A DNA stretch of 64,000 nucleotides, taken from an uncultured virus (IMG/VR IMGVR_UViG_3300036715_000434). Taxonomy: Duplodnaviria > Heunggongvirae > Uroviricota > Caudoviricetes. Within the stretch, counting starts at the first letter, position 1. Each line of letters begins with the position of its first letter. The position numbers were made by a program, and so were the translations under genes. The notes beneath the pieces are model-generated. The model saw only the letters and a program-made list of their open reading frames with translations. It had not been told where the DNA came from and made no database searches. The stretch lies in IMG/VR virus record IMGVR_UViG_3300036715_000434. The stretch is one strand, 5' to 3'. Shown in pieces: positions 8,127-59,366 of this stretch.

Positions 8127-9674
8127 ATGGGCATCAAATGGAACCGCCGCCGTCTCACGCGGGATCGCGCTGACACGGCGACTGAGGTCTTCACGACCCA
8201 GAAGCTAGGAGCCAAGCAGTCGAAGACTCCGGAAGGCTTCCTGCTCTGCGAGGACGTGCCTATCGCCAGGATCGGCGACATGGTCTACGGGCCTCAGGAA
8301 ACGCCCATCGCGGCGGGTAAGGATGGCCGGGCTACGATCACTCGCGACGCAGAGGCTCTGTTCTCCAAGTCGGCCGTGTCGAGTTACCAAGGCAAGCCCG
8401 TGGTCAACGATCACCCCGATGTCGACGTGAACCCTTCCAACTGGAAGACGTTCGCTGTGGGCATCTGTATGAACCCACGTCGAGGAGTTGGAGACGACTC
8501 CGATGTGATGCTAGCCGACCTGTTGATTACGGACGCTGACACGATCCGTGACGTGCTGGCCGGCAAGCGAGAAGTGTCTGCTGGTTACGAGGCTGACTAC
8601 GAACAGACCGGGGAGGGTCAAGGTCGTCAGACCAATATAATCGGCAATCATGTTGCGCTGGTCGAAAGAGGTCGCTGTGGCCCGCGCTGTGCAATCGGCG
8701 ACCATCATCCAACCTCCTTGAAGGAGAACTCAATGAAGCATAAGACGCGGCGGATTGTTTCCGATGCGGTCAAAGAAGCCGTGCGGCGCTCTTTCAAGGA
8801 CGCGGAAGAAGCGGCCCTGGAACAGCTCGGCAACTCCGGCATTCCTGACGGCGACGAACCCGGCGAAGAGCCCGACGGTGATGAGACCGACGGCAACCAC
8901 ACCCACATCCACATCCATTCGGGTGAAGCTGGCGGCACCCCCGCTAGTGGTGCCCCCGCTAGTGGTGCCCCCGCTAGTGGTGCCCCCGCTAGTGGTGCCC
9001 CCGCTAGTGGTAGGACCCCCGAGGAGCGCTTGACGGTCCTGGAAGGTCAGATGGCCCAGATCCTCGCCATCCTTCAAGGCGGTGACGAAGGTGGCGAACA
9101 GCTTCCGGCGGAAGGCGAACGGTCTCCCGCAGCGCCTGAAGACGTGACGCAAGACGAGATGGGCAACACCGGCACCGTCAAGCTGCCCGACTCCGGTGAC
9201 TCCGGCGAAGCGGGCGACATGTCGAACGTCAAGACCGGTGATCGCAAGGCCACCAACGACTCGGCCGGCCTGGAGACTTCGTTCCGTCAGCTCTTGAGCG
9301 ACGCCGAGATCCTGCTGCCTGGCTTCCGCATGCCGACCTTCGACGCGAAGACCACGCGCCAGAAGACCGTCGACAACATGTGCGCTCTGCGCAAGCAAGT
9401 GCTGAGCTCGGTCTACATCACCGCTGACGGCAAGGCGCTGGTCGACTCCGTGGCCGGGGTCGCTGACGTGAACCTCAGCAAGCAGGATTGCGCCCAGACT
9501 GCAGTGCTCTTCCGCGCCGCGGCCGGGGCCAAGAAACTCCTCAACAACCGGACCTCTGTGGGCGACACCGCTCACCGCGTTCCGACCCCCTCTGGTGCAC
9601 CGTCGCAGGCAACCTCGTTGTCTTCGCTGAATGCCCAGAACAAAGCGTTCTGGGCCTCCCAGGGCAAGAAGTGA
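8127..9674 (+). CDS. Prohead protease/scaffold (DUF2213 family)
   Basis: TPEGFL...VPIARIG, GKPVVNDHP, EVSAGY, NHVALVERGRCG; start refined to ATG 8127. Confidence 0.88.
   Translation: MGIKWNRRRLTRDRADTATEVFTTQKLGAKQSKTPEGFLLCEDVPIARIGDMVYGPQETPIAAGKDGRATITRDAEALFSKSAVSSYQGKPVVNDHPDVDVNPSNWKTFAVGICMNPRRGVGDDSDVMLADLLITDADTIRDVLAGKREVSAGYEADYEQTGEGQGRQTNIIGNHVALVERGRCGPRCAIGDHHPTSLKENSMKHKTRRIVSDAVKEAVRRSFKDAEEAALEQLGNSGIPDGDEPGEEPDGDETDGNHTHIHIHSGEAGGTPASGAPASGAPASGAPASGAPASGRTPEERLTVLEGQMAQILAILQGGDEGGEQLPAEGERSPAAPEDVTQDEMGNTGTVKLPDSGDSGEAGDMSNVKTGDRKATNDSAGLETSFRQLLSDAEILLPGFRMPTFDAKTTRQKTVDNMCALRKQVLSSVYITADGKALVDSVAGVADVNLSKQDCAQTAVLFRAAAGAKKLLNNRTSVGDTAHRVPTPSGAPSQATSLSSLNAQNKAFWASQGKK
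8938..9011 (+). repeat. 15-bp tandem repeat x5 (CCCCCGCTAGTGGTG) encoding PASGA
   Basis: Directly visible; last copy lacks its final base. Confidence 0.95.
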
Positions 9675-28488: not shown

Positions 28489-28710
28489 CTAAACGCGGAT
28501 CACAAGGTGAGCCTTCTGCACCTCATTGTCGTGAGGCGGGTTGTAGAAGGTAGGGACCGCTCCTCGCTCGAACCGACGAGCGTGAGCCAGGGCCGGGGCA
28601 GGAGCCGTATGGCGCCCCTTCGCGGGCATCCACTTCTCGACTTCAATATCACCACGGCCGGTCGTCTTGCGGAGCAACTGAAGGTAAGCGATGTAGTCGT
28701 CGAGGGTCAT
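28489..28710 (-). CDS. Hypothetical protein
   Basis: ATG 28710 overlaps the upstream stop; GGGGA RBS-like site. Confidence 0.55.
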   Translation of the reverse strand: MTLDDYIAYLQLLRKTTGRGDIEVEKWMPAKGRHTAPAPALAHARRFERGAVPTFYNPPHDNEVQKAHLVIRV

Positions 28711-29075
28711 GGCTTCCCCTTCTTGCCCAGGCTTCCCAAGAACTTGCCGTGCAGGGCCCGCCACAAACGGGCGGAGGCCACTAGCGGGTAGTCGTAGCCG
28801 TCGGGGTGGGGTTTATTGAGGCCACACCATTCAATCTGCGGCTGGATCTCAAGGCCAGCCGGGATCGTCTTCAGGCGGTCAGCCTCCTCGAACATGTCGG
28901 GCCATACTGGCTTGCTCCAATGATGGCCGTTCCACCAGCGCCGGCAGGAGACCCTTTCGACATCTTCACGCCTGGTCTCCCACCAACCCAAGAACGGTGG
29001 TGGCTGCTCGGTGGTCTTGGACCAGCCCGTCAGACCAATGAAGGCCTCTACGTTGAGGATGAGTTGTTTGTTCAC
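28707..29075 (-). CDS. Trp-rich hypothetical protein
   Basis: AAGGA RBS; PP..GWWET, RRWWNG..WS motifs. Confidence 0.6.
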   Translation of the reverse strand: MNKQLILNVEAFIGLTGWSKTTEQPPPFLGWWETRREDVERVSCRRWWNGHHWSKPVWPDMFEEADRLKTIPAGLEIQPQIEWCGLNKPHPDGYDYPLVASARLWRALHGKFLGSLGKKGKP

Positions 29076-39037: not shown

Positions 39038-40153
39038 TCAGACTGAGCAGTGGGCGATCAAGTGCAGGAAGCTGGCGTCTTTGTTGCCCATCACCAGGAC
39101 GCGATTAAAGAAGCCCAGATGCGTGCAAACCTTGCAAGCCCGGGTGACCAGCGTCGGGTCGATGTGGAACGGCTCTGATGGGCTATCCCCAGCGTCGAAC
39201 GTGATGCTATCACTCGCTTCACCGACCGAGCTGGTCGACAGGAGCTTGATGGCCTCGGAAGTGCAGGTGATCTTGGTGGCCTTGTCGACCTCGTTGCTTA
39301 GGATGAGCAGAGCCCGGGTGAAGGCGGCGTCGAAGGCATCGGGGATTGGGTCGATCAAGTCGGACACCTTCTTTGACTTGATGTGCTTCGACATGATCGC
39401 CGGGAAGTCGAGTGGCTCAAGGTCAACCAAGGTCTTCTGGAATAGCACGGCGACCTCAGCATCCCCCTCGTCGAAGAAGTAGGCCACCAGCGCGCCAGCG
39501 TGAAGTTCGACCTCCACCTCGACTTTGGGAAAGGCCTTCGACAGAGAAACCAACTGCTCGCAGAAGAACGCCGGGAGGATCACAGGCGCATCGCCTGGCA
39601 GTTCTACCTTGCTCTTGGTTGCGTAGCGGCTGATCGTGGTGTTGTCGGTTGAGAAGAGCACAGCCTTGCCGGCTTCAGCATCGAGAGTGACGCCCATCGT
39701 CGCCGGGTGGGTCGGGTCATTGCCCACGGAGAGCAGGCAGCGTTGGATGCCGGCCAGGATGTCCTCAGTGATGTTCAGCACCGGCACCTTCTGCTTCGCT
39801 TCCGGAATGGCCAACGGGAAGTCTTTGGCCGGCAGGATGGGGATCTTGATCTTCGACCGGCCGGAGACGATCACAAGGCTTGCGTCAGCGCCAGCCTGCA
39901 ACATCACCTTCTCCGCATTGAAGCTGTTCAGGCTCTTCGATAGCGTCTCACCTGGCAAGCAGAGATCCAGGTCTAGGTCCTTGGTCGGCAGAGCGATCTG
40001 GATCGCGGCGATGTCGTTGTAGGAGGACGCGAACCCGCCGCCGAACTTGATGTGCTTTAACGCCGGAATGTAGTCCTGAGTCGCAACGGCCGGCTTTAGC
40101 AGGTTGACCAGCTTGAGCAGAGTTTCGCGGTTGATCGAGTCGGTGGAGTTCAT
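39038..40153 (-). CDS. Sliding clamp (DNA Pol III beta-like)
   Basis: 371 aa; PALKHI, DFP, GVTL......FSTD...ISR motifs; adjacent to polymerase and clamp loader. Confidence 0.78.
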   Translation of the reverse strand: MNSTDSINRETLLKLVNLLKPAVATQDYIPALKHIKFGGGFASSYNDIAAIQIALPTKDLDLDLCLPGETLSKSLNSFNAEKVMLQAGADASLVIVSGRSKIKIPILPAKDFPLAIPEAKQKVPVLNITEDILAGIQRCLLSVGNDPTHPATMGVTLDAEAGKAVLFSTDNTTISRYATKSKVELPGDAPVILPAFFCEQLVSLSKAFPKVEVEVELHAGALVAYFFDEGDAEVAVLFQKTLVDLEPLDFPAIMSKHIKSKKVSDLIDPIPDAFDAAFTRALLILSNEVDKATKITCTSEAIKLLSTSSVGEASDSITFDAGDSPSEPFHIDPTLVTRACKVCTHLGFFNRVLVMGNKDASFLHLIAHCSV

Positions 40154-40310
40154 GGTGTTTTGCTTTCAGTTGCTGGGTGAGGAGTTCGAGGGAGGTGTAG
40201 GGGCTTGGGTAGTCGAAGAAGGAGATCAGGACATCGGCCTGGCCGACCTCGACGACAGATGCTCGGTCCGCCGCTGCCGGGGCAGACCCGAGGACGGCGA
40301 AGACTTTCAC
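39948..40310 (-). CDS. Small protein with KVFAV...VLISFFDY motif (TGT/DpdA N-terminal-strand-like)
   Basis: GTGA overlap with upstream stop; motif parallels the 40307-40516 ORF; 3' part overlaps the clamp gene. Confidence 0.45.
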   Translation of the reverse strand: MKVFAVLGSAPAAADRASVVEVGQADVLISFFDYPSPYTSLELLTQQLKAKHHELHRLDQPRNSAQAGQPAKAGRCDSGLHSGVKAHQVRRRVRVLLQRHRRDPDRSADQGPRPGSLLAR

Positions 40311-40516
40311 CGCTTCTTGGCGTTGAGGGTCGGGGCGCGCTTGGGGACCTTGCGGCCAGCCAGCGGAGACTTCGGCTTCAGGATGTTGTGGTGCTTGTCG
40401 GTGTAGTCTAGGAACGACACCAAGAGCTTTGGGTGGCCGGCCTCAAGCAGGCCGCAGGAGTAGCCATTGGCCCCGTGGAGGTCGGTGGCCGATTGAACAA
40501 GGTAGATCGTGGTCAC
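40307..40516 (-). CDS. Small protein with TIYLV...LLVSFLDY motif (TGT/DpdA N-terminal-strand-like)
   Basis: GTG 40516 overlaps the dpdA-like stop (GTGA); GAGGAG RBS. Confidence 0.55.
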   Translation of the reverse strand: MTTIYLVQSATDLHGANGYSCGLLEAGHPKLLVSFLDYTDKHHNILKPKSPLAGRKVPKRAPTLNAKKR

Positions 40517-41337
40517 AGCAGGGCTCCTCGACGAAGGGTGTTCTTCTCGAACGGGCGGGTAGCCTTCGCCTCGCTCACCATCTTGAAGAACATGACATTG
40601 CAGGTGGCTCGGTGGTAGTAGCTCTCCGTGACCTCCTCGTAGGTCTTGCCGCAGAAGGTCAGCCAACGCAGCAGGATCGCTCTCATTGCGCCCGACATCG
40701 AGTTGGAGTGCTTACCCCCTGCGCTCTGCTTCGGGTTGCGGTCTGAGACCGATATGGTCGACGGCACCTCGTCGAACACGAACTCACCGTTGCGCATGGC
40801 TGGTAGGTAGACCGATCCACTCGCGGTGATCTTGATCCACGTGGTCGAGTCGATGCTATACCACGGGTAGCGGAAGATGAGCGGCACGGCGGTCATCCCG
40901 AAGCCGTGGGTCTTCACGACGGGCAGGCCGGCGTCATCAGTGATGCGGGCGAACACTCGATCAAGCCAGGTGCGCCGTGGGCCCCCAGGGATGCCCACGA
41001 GGCCACCAATGCCGATGTAGTCGCAGCCATAGTCCAGCATGCGTTCGAGGAAGCGTGGCTCCTCGCCGTAGTGGTAGACGGGCAGGGGGTCGAGCCCCTC
41101 ATTGCGCATGTAGAGGAAATTCACCCAGGACTGCTCGGCGGCCTCGTTGCGTTCACGCGGGGTGGCCGATCGCCCAGGCGCGCCGGGGATCACATCGAGG
41201 CTGGCGTAGACCTCGATCAATTCGATGTTGGCTCGGATGAACTCGCAATACTCGTCGAGGTCAATGACGGTGCCTCTTGACCACGCCGAGTAAGCCCCGG
41301 AGTCAAGAAAGAAGCGGAACTTATCAGGGGTGATCAT
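40513..41337 (-). CDS. DpdA/TGT-like 7-deazaguanine DNA transglycosylase
   Basis: FLDSGAYSA, LDVI, PVYH.GE, YIGIGG, HGFG, PWYSIDSTTW; adjacent to folE and queC; start refined to ATG 41337. Confidence 0.82.
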   Translation of the reverse strand: MITPDKFRFFLDSGAYSAWSRGTVIDLDEYCEFIRANIELIEVYASLDVIPGAPGRSATPRERNEAAEQSWVNFLYMRNEGLDPLPVYHYGEEPRFLERMLDYGCDYIGIGGLVGIPGGPRRTWLDRVFARITDDAGLPVVKTHGFGMTAVPLIFRYPWYSIDSTTWIKITASGSVYLPAMRNGEFVFDEVPSTISVSDRNPKQSAGGKHSNSMSGAMRAILLRWLTFCGKTYEEVTESYYHRATCNVMFFKMVSEAKATRPFEKNTLRRGALL

Positions 41338-41456
41338 GAGTTGTAGTCGTGAGGTTTCAACGAAGCTGCCTAAGTGGATGGGGAAGCCACATTCACTCAA
41401 GCACCGGCGTCGCCAGGGGTGAAGCGCGGTGCAGAGCCAGGTCAGCATAAGTGGGT

Positions 41457-41535
41457 GGGGCCACCGGGCTGCGATGCCCGGCTATTGGCTTGAGAGGAGA
41501 CTGTCTGGCCTCATTGGCGCAACACCAATGGCCCC
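41457..41535 (-). ncRNA. tRNA-like cloverleaf element (non-canonical) between folE and the dpdA-like gene
   Basis: GGGGCCA/TGGCCCC 7-bp closing stem followed by ACC; TTGG/CCAA, GAGG/CCTC and CCGGGC/GCCCGG arms. Confidence 0.35.
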
Positions 41536-41542
41536 GGTGAGA

Positions 41543-42112
41543 TTATCGGCCCAACGCAATCAGGTTCAAGAACTCGGCGCGAGTCTCGGGCTTCGCCTTG
41601 AATACCCCCCGCAGCGCGGAAGTGGTCGTGTCTACATTGGGCATCTTGACGCCGCGCGTGGCCATGCAGAAGTGCTTTGCCGTGATGACCACGCCGACCC
41701 CAACAGGGTCCAGGACATCATTGATGGCGTCCGCGATCTGGTTGGTAAGCCGCTCCTGGACCTGCAAACGACGCGAATAGGCATCGACCACCCGTGCCAG
41801 CTTGCTGATCCCCACGATGCGCCCGTTAGGGATGTAGGCGACATGCGCCAGGCCGATGATGGGAGTGATGTGGTGCTCACAGTGAGACTGAACGGGGATG
41901 TTGGTCAGGAGGACCATCTCGTCGGCCTTCTCGGCGCCGTCAGAGAAGTCCTTGCGGAGAAGTTCCAGCGGGTCGATGGCGTAGCCAGCGAACCACTCTC
42001 CCCAGGCGCGCACGACCCGGTCAGGGGTGTCGAGGAGGCCTTCGCGTTGGGGATCGTCACCGATGTGGGCCATCATGCCTTTGATTGCATCTCGTGCATT
42101 GAAGAGGGTCAC
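41543..42112 (-). CDS. folE: GTP cyclohydrolase I
   Basis: [38 protein letters not shown]; start GTG 42112. Confidence 0.95.
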
Positions 42113-42957
42113 GCCGAAGCTCCCAGGTTGTAGTTCATCTTGGCGCGGAGGATGTCGTCGGAGAGCAGCAGGCACGATTCCTTGTTGCTGTAGTTCTCCG
42201 TGCGGGGCACCTCCATGAAGCCTTCACGGCAGGCCCTGATCACCAAAGGATCCGGAACGCCAGCCATCTCGAACCCGTGAGCCCGCAGCACGGAAGCGTG
42301 ATCCTTGCCCACCGGTGGATAGGCGCCGTCGTAGGCCGTGTGCGAGAAGGCCAGGGCCACGTAGGCGCCTTCCATCTCCATCGCCAGGTGAATCGAGTCC
42401 CTCTTGCTGAGGTTCATCAGTGGGGCGTAGATGCAGAACTCGCCGGTGCCTAGAGCTTCGTTGATCGTTGCTTCCTGAGTAGCGATAAAACTCTCACGGC
42501 AGTCTGGGTAGTTGGCGTTGTCGGCCTCGCACACGCCGGTGACAAGCGCGTTAATGCCCAGGCAGACGGCTCGGTTGGCGGCCAGGGTCAGGAACAGCGC
42601 GTTGCGCATCGGAACAAACGTCTTCTCGACCCGATCACCGATGATCGCCGCCATCGAGTCGTGGTCATCGTAGAGCTCAAGCACCTCGAACGCATTGGTC
42701 AGTGGGCTAGCGCCCTTCAGGATGGGGCCCAGCTCGACGATCTCATGGCTGGCCACGCCAGCGAGCTTTGCGACATCGCGTGCGGCCTGGATCTCGCGGC
42801 GATGACGCTGGTTGTAGTCGAACGTGACCGCGTGCACTTCGGCGAAGTACTTCTTCGCCCAGAATAGGCAGGTGGTTGAATCTTGGCCGCCTGACAGAAC
42901 CACGAGGGCCTTATGTCGAGGGTGGCTGTTGACGGATCCGGGTTGAGTGTTGGGCAC
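42109..42957 (-). CDS. queC: 7-cyano-7-deazaguanine synthase
   Basis: [39 protein letters not shown] before GTG 42957. Confidence 0.92.
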
Positions 42958-42990: not shown

Positions 42991-43027
42991 AAGAAAAAGG
43001 CCCCGCATGGATATATACGGGGCCTTT
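42991..43027 (-). terminator. Intrinsic terminator after the 43052-44044 gene
   Basis: Minus strand AAAGGCCCCG-loop-CGGGGCCTTTTTCTT. Confidence 0.7.
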
Positions 43028-44044: not shown

Positions 44045-44123
44045 TTGGAAAAATCTCCTAGGAGGTTTGGGGTTTGTGCACACCGGGCGTCCCGGCTAGT
44101 TGAATTATACAGAGGCGTGTTGG

Positions 44124-51043: not shown

Positions 51044-51768
51044 GGCATCCCCAGGATCTTGTGAACTTGCAGCGACAGGCGGTAGCCGTGCTTCATGCAG
51101 ATGTCCACAGCCGCCTTGATGTTGTTGGCGTTCTTGAACGGCTCGTGTTCGTCCATGGGCGAGATCCAGATGGTGTCGGTAGCCTCACGAGAGACCAGCT
51201 GCCAGGGGGCCCCGCCGCCGTTGGCCTGGGTCGGTTCGTTGGGCAGCCCGTTTTCATCAACACCGCCAGCCCGGACGACGTACTTCCAATGACGGCAGTA
51301 GTGCGCAATCATCGGGTGCACGTGCTTCGTCTTGGGGCTACAAACTAGAGTCAGCTCGTTCCGGGTCACGGACTTGTCGATGGAAGGATCCCAGAGGTTG
51401 CCCGCCGTCTCCATCTGCGAGTGCTTGACCCCGATGTTCGTCAGGGCCTCGATCAGTGGGCCTGTGGTCTGACGCATCGGCTCTCCGCCGGTCAACACGA
51501 TGATCACTTCGTCAATCATGCTCGGCGCAGGCAACGAGTTGAGAGCTTGATTGACGATCTGCTCAACCGAAAACCGGTTGTTGATGCCGCTCTCAAACTC
51601 GGTATCACAGAACGTGCAGGCTAGGTGGCAGCCAGCCAGCCGGATGAACACCGCGGGCATGCCGGTGAATGGGCCCTCGCCTTGAATCGTGTAGAAGACT
51701 TCCTGGACGGCCAGCATGCCGTCGTCGGGCTTCTGGTCCAGTTTGCGGATAGGGTTTCGGCCAAACAT
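51040..51768 (-). CDS. queE: 7-carboxy-7-deazaguanine synthase (radical SAM)
   Basis: E.FYTIQGEG..TG.PAVFIRLAGC.L.C.FCDT, LTGGEP, ET.G, SPK, RLSLQ.HK. Confidence 0.95.
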   Translation of the reverse strand: MFGRNPIRKLDQKPDDGMLAVQEVFYTIQGEGPFTGMPAVFIRLAGCHLACTFCDTEFESGINNRFSVEQIVNQALNSLPAPSMIDEVIIVLTGGEPMRQTTGPLIEALTNIGVKHSQMETAGNLWDPSIDKSVTRNELTLVCSPKTKHVHPMIAHYCRHWKYVVRAGGVDENGLPNEPTQANGGGAPWQLVSREATDTIWISPMDEHEPFKNANNIKAAVDICMKHGYRLSLQVHKILGMP

Positions 51769-53271: not shown

Positions 53272-53297
53272 CCAGAAGGGTCTTTGCAAGAAAGCTG

Positions 53298-53367
53298 TTG
53301 CGACCTTCAAATCTGTATATAGAATAGAGCCATCGAATCAGAAACCACCCCGGAGAACGAAGATGAC
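53298..53367 (+). promoter_or_regulatory. Sigma70-like early promoter plus leader (repeat copy 1)
   Basis: TTGCGA-N16-TAGAAT; 53310-53367 identical to 55567-55624. Confidence 0.75.
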
Positions 53368-53632
53368 CAGACAAGAGAAGATTACCAAGGCGCAAGAGAT
53401 CCTCACCCTGATCCGCAGGGCGGGCCTCAAGTTCGAGGAAGTCTGCGCGGTCGAGTTTGCCAGCCAGATGCAAGAGATCGCAGATGGCTACAACGAAGAG
53501 AACCCAAGTGATGAACCCGAGGACAAGGCCACGATCTACAGCGAGGCGCGGAGCTTCGTTGAGTGTGACTGCTGTGACCTCTCGTCCGAGGCCTGGGCCG
53601 CGTTCGAGGAACTCTACGGCCCGCAAGACTGA
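53363..53632 (+). CDS. Small acidic early protein
   Basis: GGAGA RBS; about 21 D/E versus 8 K/R in 89 aa. Confidence 0.7.
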   Translation: MTRQEKITKAQEILTLIRRAGLKFEEVCAVEFASQMQEIADGYNEENPSDEPEDKATIYSEARSFVECDCCDLSSEAWAAFEELYGPQD

Positions 53633-53643
53633 AGACGAACCCA

Positions 53644-53670
53644 CCGGCAAGGGCAACTAGCCTTTGCCGG
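53644..53670 (+). repeat. Conserved intergenic hairpin, copy 1 (loop AACTA)
   Basis: CCGGCAAGGGC-AACTA-GCCTTTGCCGG. Confidence 0.75.
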
Positions 53671-53721
53671 CGAGATTCCGACAGAAAATCCGCCATCCCC
53701 AAACCCCTACGGAGAGAAAAC

Positions 53722-55517: not shown

Positions 55518-55554
55518 ATGCCCTAGTGATGTACAAGGTCTTTGCCAAAAGATG

Positions 55555-55624
55555 TTGCCATCGTTTAATCTGTATATAGAATAGAGCCATCGAATCAGAA
55601 ACCACCCCGGAGAACGAAGATGAC
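55555..55624 (+). promoter_or_regulatory. Sigma70-like early promoter plus leader (repeat copy 2)
   Basis: TTGCCA-N16-TAGAAT; 58-bp identity with 53310-53367. Confidence 0.75.
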
Positions 55625-55823
55625 GAGCCCCACAGAAACCATCAAGATCGCGAACGAAGTCACCCTTGAACTGAAGGCGATGAAGGAAATCGGCATGCGC
55701 ATCCCGGCCAAGGCGTTCAAGTATGTCGAGGCAAACAAAGAAGAGATGGCAGAGTTCCGCAACAGCGGCATGAAGATTGCTGAAATCGCTGACTACGTGA
55801 TTGGAGCCTCGCGCATCCTCTGA
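55620..55823 (+). CDS. Small early protein
   Basis: GGAGA RBS directly behind the promoter. Confidence 0.7.
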   Translation: MTSPTETIKIANEVTLELKAMKEIGMRIPAKAFKYVEANKEEMAEFRNSGMKIAEIADYVIGASRIL

Positions 55824-55829
55824 CGAACT

Positions 55830-55860
55830 CACCTGCTAGGGCAACCAGCTCTAGCAGGTG
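55830..55860 (+). repeat. Conserved intergenic hairpin, copy 2 (loop AACCA)
   Basis: CACCTGCTAGGGC-AACCA-GCTCTAGCAGGTG. Confidence 0.75.
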
Positions 55861-55906
55861 CGCTCTGAGAAAGCCGCCGCTACCACAACCCCTTAGGAGA
55901 TCAACC

Positions 55907-56630: not shown

Positions 56631-56652
56631 ACCACTCGCTGATCGAGTTCAG

Positions 56653-56677
56653 CGGCAAGGGCAACCAGCCTTTGCCG
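56653..56677 (+). repeat. Conserved intergenic hairpin, copy 3 (loop AACCA)
   Basis: CGGCAAGGGC-AACCA-GCCTTTGCCG. Confidence 0.75.
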
Positions 56678-56713
56678 GCGTACTCACGACGCCTCAACCC
56701 AAGGAGAACAAAA

Positions 56714-59168: not shown

Positions 59169-59366
59169 ATGAAGCTGATCACCGGATTCATTCTCGGCGT
59201 ATTCCTCGCCATCGCAGTCGGCTTCGCCATGGTGCGATGCGTGGCGCAGGAGGACAACGCAACCCCACCTCATGCACTGACCCAGCAAGACATTGACGAG
59301 CTCACGATGAAGTGGTCGAAAGAGCCGTTGCCTGATCTGCTGGCTGGCAAGAAGGGGAAGCCATGA
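59169..59366 (+). CDS. Small membrane or secreted protein
   Basis: GGAG RBS; hydrophobic N-terminus. Confidence 0.55.
   Translation: MKLITGFILGVFLAIAVGFAMVRCVAQEDNATPPHALTQQDIDELTMKWSKEPLPDLLAGKKGKP

Follow-up and report, generated by a model that had tools for sequence, protein, structure and literature searches.

What occupies the interval between folE and the TGT-family gene dpdA in this phage, and does it act on the expression of dpdA? The window (the whole stretch of 64,000 nucleotides that was analysed) is a piece of a tailed-phage genome with a G+C content of ~61%. The closest annotated relative is Edwardsiella phage vB_EpM_ZHS, in which the gene order is likewise queC, folE, TGT-family gene, clamp and polymerase. 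QueC and FolE were assigned by Pfam and the TGT-family gene was assigned to phrog_887 by PHROGs (E value of 1.5e-49). The predicted fold of the 311-residue DpdA (pLDDT 82.8) resembles TGT and the DpdA structure 7UI4; a sequence search of the PDB gave no match. The closest known protein system is phage DpdA1 (phrog_887; 9g, CAjan and NP1 group), which has the TGT fold, is ~35% identical to the window protein and likewise has folE and queC adjoining. The window clade differs from it in an N-terminal module that is variable, duplicated, fused or free and in an internal Met at the start of the core. A QueE-like ORF at 51768–51040 was assigned from sequence only. The coding features around the junction are as follows.

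41543..42175, minus strand: folE, GTP cyclohydrolase I (Pfam; the coordinates are ORF limits and not a determined start)
41338..41448, minus strand: N-terminal module of DpdA, 37 residues, strand–helix–strand, in frame with the core (relatives, profile, model)
40513..41337, minus strand: DpdA core (phrog_887, TGT fold), which has a Met of its own at 41337
40307..40516, minus strand: spare module A, a free-standing ORF resembling the N-terminal module (sequence likeness)
39948..40310, minus strand: spare module B, a second module-like ORF that runs over the start of the clamp gene (likeness by eye and relatives)

The first-pass annotation had described the interval as an ~200-nt gap. Only 94 nt (41542–41449) are in fact non-coding; 41448–41338 encodes a conserved peptide in frame with DpdA, and the DpdA extension from ATG 41448 that had been named as a counter-reading is thus real for half of the interval. 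An N-terminal extension is present in 47 of the 118 homologous proteins that have the core motif (of 120 listed), and the five closest homologues repeat the window peptide from ATG 41448. Against a module profile built without these five, the window peptide scores 38.4 compared with ~11 for shuffled spacers, and the model of the module is a strand–helix–strand arrangement with a pLDDT of 67–77. In 43 of the 47 fused proteins a Met is found at the core start or one residue away from it, the Met content of the extensions being 2%; this conservation suggests that both fused and core-only forms of DpdA may be made. The GCACCG/CGGTGC hairpin at 41401–41432, which had been counted as a further structure of a leader, does fold in this genome (z of −2.5), but it lies within the module coding sequence and its arms are unpaired in the related loci L032 and L033. 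Neither amber read-through of the TAG at 41484 nor a longer ORF across the spacer gave a module-like score.

Free-standing module-like ORFs of several sequence classes, one to four in number, follow dpdA in most loci of the clade, the upstream module of the window being fused; tandem modules also occur (L016, L041, P0017, P0035 and P0070). Between L032 and L033 the DpdA cores are near-identical (98% at codon positions 1–2) and the module and spacer are far more divergent, which makes the module–core border a likely recombination breakpoint.

The non-coding half contains a compact structured element with the following parts.

41457..41535, minus strand: structured non-coding element, 79 nt, with two competing folds, a cloverleaf and a 17-bp rod (sequence, folding)
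41529..41535, minus strand: 5′ strand of the outer stem, 7 bp, partner 41463–41457, in both folds (pair probability 0.64–1.0)
41514..41528, minus strand: 'D-like' hairpin, 4 bp with a 7-nt loop or 6 bp with a 3-nt loop; in the rod its 5′ strand re-pairs with the 3′ strand of the 'T-like' hairpin
41497..41512, minus strand: 'anticodon-like' hairpin, 5 bp, with a loop of 6 nt and not 7 (folding)
41482..41496, minus strand: 15-nt linker, 6–7 nt of which are complementary to the module coding sequence, at a level not established as above chance
41464..41481, minus strand: 'T-like' hairpin, 6 bp with a 6-nt loop; stem and flanks recur at 44098–44081
41457..41463, minus strand: 3′ strand of the outer stem, which together with the T-like stem buries the only Shine–Dalgarno-like sequence, GGUGG

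All helices originally read from the minus strand between 41535 and 41457 are present, namely the 7-bp outer stem, the 4-bp hairpin with its 7-nt loop, the GAGG/CCTC stem and the 6-bp hairpin with its 6-nt loop. The GAGG/CCTC stem is better drawn as 5 bp, including one G–U pair, around a 6-nt loop. The 15-nt linker precedes the 6-bp hairpin (pair probability of its stem 0.39), and that hairpin adjoins the outer stem without a spacer, confirming the description of a 7-bp acceptor-like stem abutting a T-arm-like helix (7 + 6 bp). ACCCA follows directly 3′ of the element, and ACC flanks both of its ends in the window.

The predicted folding energy also withstood comparison with shuffled sequences, the 79-mer having a z of −3.2 with one of 200 shuffles equally good. 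A loose all-Watson–Crick cloverleaf pattern, written so as to admit the element, found a single match in 128 kb (both strands of the window) and none in 51 shuffles of 64 kb; with G–U pairs allowed, cloverleaves of this kind are common, at 3–13 per shuffle. The helices of the element are not due to chance. Nor is the element an assembly slip, since contigs from two other runs cover it with no differences; the covering contigs contain no strain variants within it and hence offer no strain covariation. The cloverleaf, which had been taken as the principal structure, is not the minimum-energy fold. That fold is the rod (11 + 6 pairs, −38.7 kcal/mol), with the cloverleaf at −32.4 or −35.8 kcal/mol, i.e. 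3–6 kcal/mol higher, and the ensemble is shared between ~61% rod and ~36–39% cloverleaf.

Its range is narrow. The element occurs as a single copy in the window, and a BLASTN search of the gap against phages and plasmids gave chance matches only. One pattern scan of viral contigs returned the contig itself and one extra, unrelated match (L030), and a second returned the contig itself alone; a further scan gave 102 matches, among which only the contig itself encodes folE or dpdA. The RNA structure is real and looks selected; it is not a tRNA and is not shown to be a tRNA mimic.

This last point rests on several searches and on the loops. A tRNA is marked by a 7-nt T loop with TTCRA and by a GG in the D-loop; many tRNA genes have no encoded CCA, making a missing CCA a weak argument by itself. 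The element resembles tRNA (RF00005) in its length of ~79 nt, its four helices in cloverleaf order and the stacking of the outer stem on the 3′ hairpin without a spacer; it differs in having no linker before the D-like arm and in the 6-nt loops of its anticodon-like and T-like arms. Its 7/6 branch also departs from the 8/4 or 9/3 branches described for tRNA-Sec and allo-tRNAs (PMC5389517). ARAGORN found no tRNA genes in the window and 17 loci, a tRNA covariance model gave no match up to an E value of 10 on 221 bases, and Rfam returned nothing over the element, including C4, the preQ1 riboswitch classes and self-cleaving ribozymes. A D-loop GG, a 7-nt T loop and a 7-nt anticodon loop are all absent. 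The earlier remark that the T-loop departs from the TTCGA consensus and that no CCA end is present holds: no TTCRA was found, and the bases that follow are ACCCA.

Descent from a tRNA gene by decay, or from a miniature mobile element with terminal inverted repeats, is accordingly extremely improbable, in spite of the tRNA-like size and of the ACC at both ends in the window. A decaying tRNA gene would be expected to lose base pairs earlier than all of its invariant loop bases, and here every stem is intact and every tRNA loop mark is gone, which largely refutes the proposal of a decayed tRNA. A mobile element is contradicted by the single copy in the window, by the lack of a real match among the phages, plasmids and viral contigs searched and by the lack of a target duplication common to L032 or L033, the 3-nt flank repeat being confined to the window.

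Relatives place the element in a wider setting. The metagenome scan for relatives used the best 80 of 146, and 80 folE loci were looked at by the cloverleaf scan only. The nearest relatives having DNA are the loci L032 and L033 (80%); a FolE scan and a genome scan found none closer. Altogether, 28 distinct folE–dpdA junctions with a DpdA identity of >52% were compared, leaving out loci of <52% identity, those in which the match starts after residue 6 and those with no adjoining folE (L005 and L125). The module starts within −4 to +3 of the folE stop in 15 of these junctions, and the core follows folE directly in five. Two have a 46-nt gap with one hairpin (L006 and L037) and three contain other or extra ORFs (one GIY-YIG-like by eye). 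In the remaining three, the window, L032 and L033 (= L034), ~100 non-coding bases precede a fused module.

The 46-nt gaps (L006:3952–4000 and L037:2952–3000) are non-coding; 16 nt separate the end of their conserved 5-bp hairpin from the start codon, and they have neither a Shine–Dalgarno sequence nor a module. ORFs that resemble GIY-YIG homing endonucleases by eye are found in the folE–dpdA gap of L004 and after the clamp gene in L036.

The three long spacers share a layout. The eight bases around the folE stop do not differ between them, and in all three a long stem begins 7–9 nt after that stop. The closing duplex (first versus last 32 bases) is matched or beaten by 0, 4 and 29 of 1000 shuffles and is stronger than 99.9%, 98.8% and 99.1% of the 95-mers of the window, respectively; as a control, two of 15 independent coding gaps likewise gave strong closing duplexes (3 and 7 of 300). 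Two coding gaps also exceed the element in folding z-score, which alone does not separate them. The L032 and L033 spacers show homology at the sequence level (0 of 1000 shuffles), and their outer stems (13 bp and 5 + 10 bp) keep their pairing with changed letters, three changes being two-sided in a hand alignment of the pair lists. The window spacer could not be aligned above chance to either relative (94 and 536 of 1000), and its homology therefore rests on position.

The cloverleaf itself does not extend across the three. A relaxed Watson–Crick cloverleaf scan of 1.29 Mb, with a pattern set after L033 had been seen, matched 12 distinct sites elsewhere besides the orthologous position in L033/L034; it did not match in L032. 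In L033 the cloverleaf lies 5.7 kcal/mol above the rod. Single-sequence covariance models searched among the three sequences gave an E value of 3.6 for the L033 orthologue and left L032 unmatched, and the reverse search matched neither the window nor L032. MAFFT alignment followed by RNAalifold gave no outer stem common to the spacers. The common feature therefore appears to be the closing stem and not the cloverleaf, at a level short of family-level proof. The top R1 covariance match (E value of 0.23) runs antisense to the coding sequence for DpdA in L032 and L033, and duplex tests did not uphold it.

These comparisons bear on the proposal that the element is a tRNA mimic. The core observation, a non-random non-coding RNA structure in front of a TGT-family gene, stands, and relatives with the same layout are structured there too; the tRNA-mimic role is not supported, there being no tRNA score, no loop marks, a cloverleaf that is a minority fold and none that can be drawn in L032. 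That a true mimic is bound by DpdA as an autoregulatory operator, or by tRNA-cutting defence nucleases as a decoy, is in our view very unlikely. The perfect four-way cloverleaf, which is as large as a tRNA and has no second copy in the window, the cloverleaf drawable at the orthologous place in L033 and the TGT fold of DpdA speak for such binding, as does the appearance of the small hairpins first in prefix folds of the element. However, TGT reads a GUN anticodon within the anticodon stem-loop (PMC10164549); the anticodon-like arm of the window offers no GUN in a 7-nt loop, and GUN is not found in the hairpin loops of L032 and L033. TTCRA, a D-loop GG and a CCA are likewise missing, and the cloverleaf is energetically costly in the window and in L033. 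The DpdA of phage 9g acts on DNA and, in the experiments described, did not replace TGT on tRNA or complement tgt (PMC6884629). The operator idea is weakened further by a phage promoter that lies 3′ of the structure in L032 and L033, since the dpdA message of these loci would not carry the structure.

An origin within the module family was also weighed. The spacer could be the remains of a dead first module gene, its hairpins accidental or copied from phage leaders and without a job of their own, an account that we consider unlikely. Its length is that of one module, and tandem modules do occur. A single change would turn the bases at the folE stop into the stop/start overlap seen in coupled modules; the T-like arm is repeated at 44098–44081, and the spacers diverge faster than synonymous sites. 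When scored as a module the L032 spacer gives a weak signal (5 of 150), but the window and L033 spacers do no better than shuffles (128 and 141 of 150) and a module HMM matched neither. Moreover, long closing stems with changed letters in all three spacers and the unique perfect cloverleaf of the window are hard to obtain without selection. Descent from a dead module would be compatible with a function today.

The signals around the junction were then considered together with those of neighbouring genes.

41542..41569, minus strand: match to a sigma-70-like promoter (9 of 12) that overlaps the folE stop; the −10 box ends 6 nt before the element
42996..43027, minus strand: hairpin and T-run upstream of queC, with the top-scoring phage promoter motif in the loop
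44081..44109, minus strand: leader of the upstream gene (start 44044), with a phage promoter motif and a hairpin that is a paralogue of the T-like arm

A clade motif around GTATA is found before queC and before the gene upstream of it, where a short leader hairpin follows. The phage promoter matrix, which ranks sites in front of window genes first, was built on 28 sites chosen by their pattern and context in 17 other relatives; one or more of these sites may be spurious. A site between the stem and the module ATG ranks first in both L032 (of 3430) and L033 (of 4562); dpdA in these two loci starts without a Shine–Dalgarno sequence and looks leaderless. The window has no phage promoter between the structure and dpdA. 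Its sigma-70-like match puts the +1 at the first stem base, with two such sites in 4.6 kb versus 0.9 expected, and can also be read as what is left of the usual stop/start overlap; L033 has not retained the −35 box. The match scores poorly as a phage promoter; the GATAAT site, tried as a phage-type promoter, ranked 1013 of 127,962, a result partly built in because the training set was TATA-picked.

The terminator-like hairpin at 43027–42996 (minus strand), with the promoter motif in its loop, is conserved upstream of queC in at least nine relatives. At 44109–44044 (minus strand) and in relatives, the promoter motif is followed a few bases on by a short GC hairpin in the leader of the gene for phrog_38529, a 330-residue protein of unknown function for which an Atlas search gave no useful match.

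The T-like arm and its flanks recur in that leader at 44098–44081 (two matches versus none in 100 shuffles, with a pattern drawn from both sites afterwards), and an inner hairpin of L032 corresponds to a motif with six occurrences in the window versus 0.56 expected (pattern again drawn afterwards). These recurrences point to a derivation of the arms from phage leader hairpins and not from tRNA. The L032-matching motif is that of three hairpin copies in the early region of the window (53636–53677, 55824–55865 and 56644–56685, plus strand), which have a common loop and stems changed on both sides; it has no Rfam match, and the repeated hairpins are a candidate early-region RNA signal.

For translation, the only Shine–Dalgarno-like sequence of the fused start is GGUGG at −17 to −13 from ATG 41448. 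It is buried in both folds, with an unpaired probability of ≤0.05 in the window. A ribosome stopped on folE was modelled as melting the structure; GGUGG was not freed, leaving coupling by melting unsupported. No U-run follows the hairpin, which is thus not an intrinsic terminator.

The sigma-70-like match raises the possibility, an improbable one on balance, of a separate small RNA gene, started at the −10 box with a 5′ end near 41535 or cut by RNase P, and acting in trans like C4 or as a protein decoy. The +1 at the first stem base, the eight identical bases around the folE stop in all three spacers and the promoter-like motifs that flank the L032 and L033 elements on both sides would fit a separate transcript. 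The size of 79 nt is close to the ~77 nt of the C4 antisense RNA of P1/P7 (PMC5320573), which is likewise phage-encoded, has a terminal stem starting with GG and lies in front of genes belonging to the same operon. An acceptor stem of 7 bp is a main RNase P determinant (PMC4201824); the YrlA bacterial Y RNAs treated there, tRNA-shaped non-coding RNAs found in some phages, resemble the element in having a 7-bp stem that RNase P could read. The window and L032 have short complements to the dpdA coding sequence at corresponding positions (3 versus 0.3 expected, 5 of 1000 shuffles, in a test that ignores kinship). On the other hand, L033 has no matched complement site, and in none of the three spacers does the strongest duplex with dpdA exceed shuffles (38, 18 and 59 of 60). 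The −35 box is lost in L033, the eight bases may be a remnant of the usual overlap, there is no 3′ end signal and neither C4 nor any other Rfam family matched. The element also lacks the three-stem fold of C4 with its a′ and b′ loops, starts with GGG where C4 starts with GGW, lies in a lytic-type DNA modification operon where C4 lies in an immunity region, and has no established conserved loop–target pairing of the kind described for C4 (PMC5320573). It differs from YrlA as described (PMC4201824) in lacking a conserved T arm and an Rfam match, and no Ro60 gene was noticed adjoining it by inspection.

The reading that we prefer, tentatively and at somewhat less than even confidence, is that of a cis-acting intercistronic RNA structure on the queC–folE–dpdA message which uncouples dpdA in one sub-lineage only. 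In most relatives, translation of the DpdA N-terminal module would be coupled at its start to that of folE. In the sub-lineage, ~100 nt would take the place of this coupling, with their two ends paired in a long, GC-rich stem 7–9 nt past the folE stop. Such a stem may mark the end of the queC–folE part of the message, as a 3′ barrier or a processing site, and so separate the expression of dpdA from that of the precursor genes. In L032 and L033, dpdA would then be served by a separate phage promoter and start leaderless. The window has no such promoter; dpdA would there depend on read-through or on the weak sigma-70-like promoter, and with the sole Shine–Dalgarno-like sequence buried the output of the module-fused DpdA should drop. 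The structure, the coding module, the layout in relatives and the motif positions are direct observations; from them we infer transcription, processing and any effect on the level of DpdA.

Processing of polycistronic messages is known to uncouple operon genes (PMC3997798), and the element resembles the intercistronic stems and processing sites treated there in being a long stem between two operon genes right after a stop; it differs in that the stem closes a branched interior instead of a short loop and in being a single copy. The early RNase III stems of T7 and REP stems are comparable intercistronic stems. The sample behind the intercistronic-stem reading is three independent sequences only, and this reading does not explain the four perfect cloverleaf helices of the window.

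A more elaborate scheme is also conceivable, though our expectation for it is low. The RNA would have two states, the cloverleaf first and the rod later, read by RNase P or a phage protein, and would choose between the fused DpdA and a core-only form to which the spare modules are added. Combined with the slippage-prone (CT)n/(GA)n tracts that lie between module and core elsewhere in the clade, this would amount to a switchable DNA modification in which the form of the enzyme, and perhaps its target sequence, varies so as to evade restriction.

These tracts, 10–25 bases long, lie in or after the module in L003, L012, L016, L039 and L001 and in P0019, P0027, P0043, P0056, P0065 and P0115; the window has none. 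Edwardsiella phage vB_EpM_ZHS has no spacer of this kind but does have a GA tract. Among the 15 coupled modules, a tract of at least 10 bases is present in four of the five that are out of frame with the core versus one of the ten in frame; an earlier table gave 3/4 versus 1/13 (p = 0.022), kin not being independent. This distribution suggests possible switching of the module–core fusion by slippage (phase variation).

The literature searched yielded no description of the folE–dpdA spacer RNA or of post-transcriptional tuning of the 7-deazaguanine pathway by phages. The searched part of the supplement text of PMC10690425 gave no match; its remaining files could list the spacer RNA. If the element sets the amount or the form of DpdA, it would be a small, testable control point for the level of phage DNA modification; if it is merely a 3′ stem of one sub-lineage, it would be a minor regulatory detail. 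The junction as a whole, with its coupled module, frameshifting tracts, homing endonuclease, own promoter and structured spacer, looks like a hot spot at which DpdA expression is varied.

Other repeats were noted elsewhere in the window. An 80-nt direct repeat (53291–53370 and 55548–55627, plus strand; 91% identical) resembles an early promoter and ribosome-binding cassette. A perfect 21-nt inverted repeat (28707–28727 and 59346–59366) spans 30.6 kb, and tandem 15-nt repeats lie within a head-region gene (8928–9011, plus strand).
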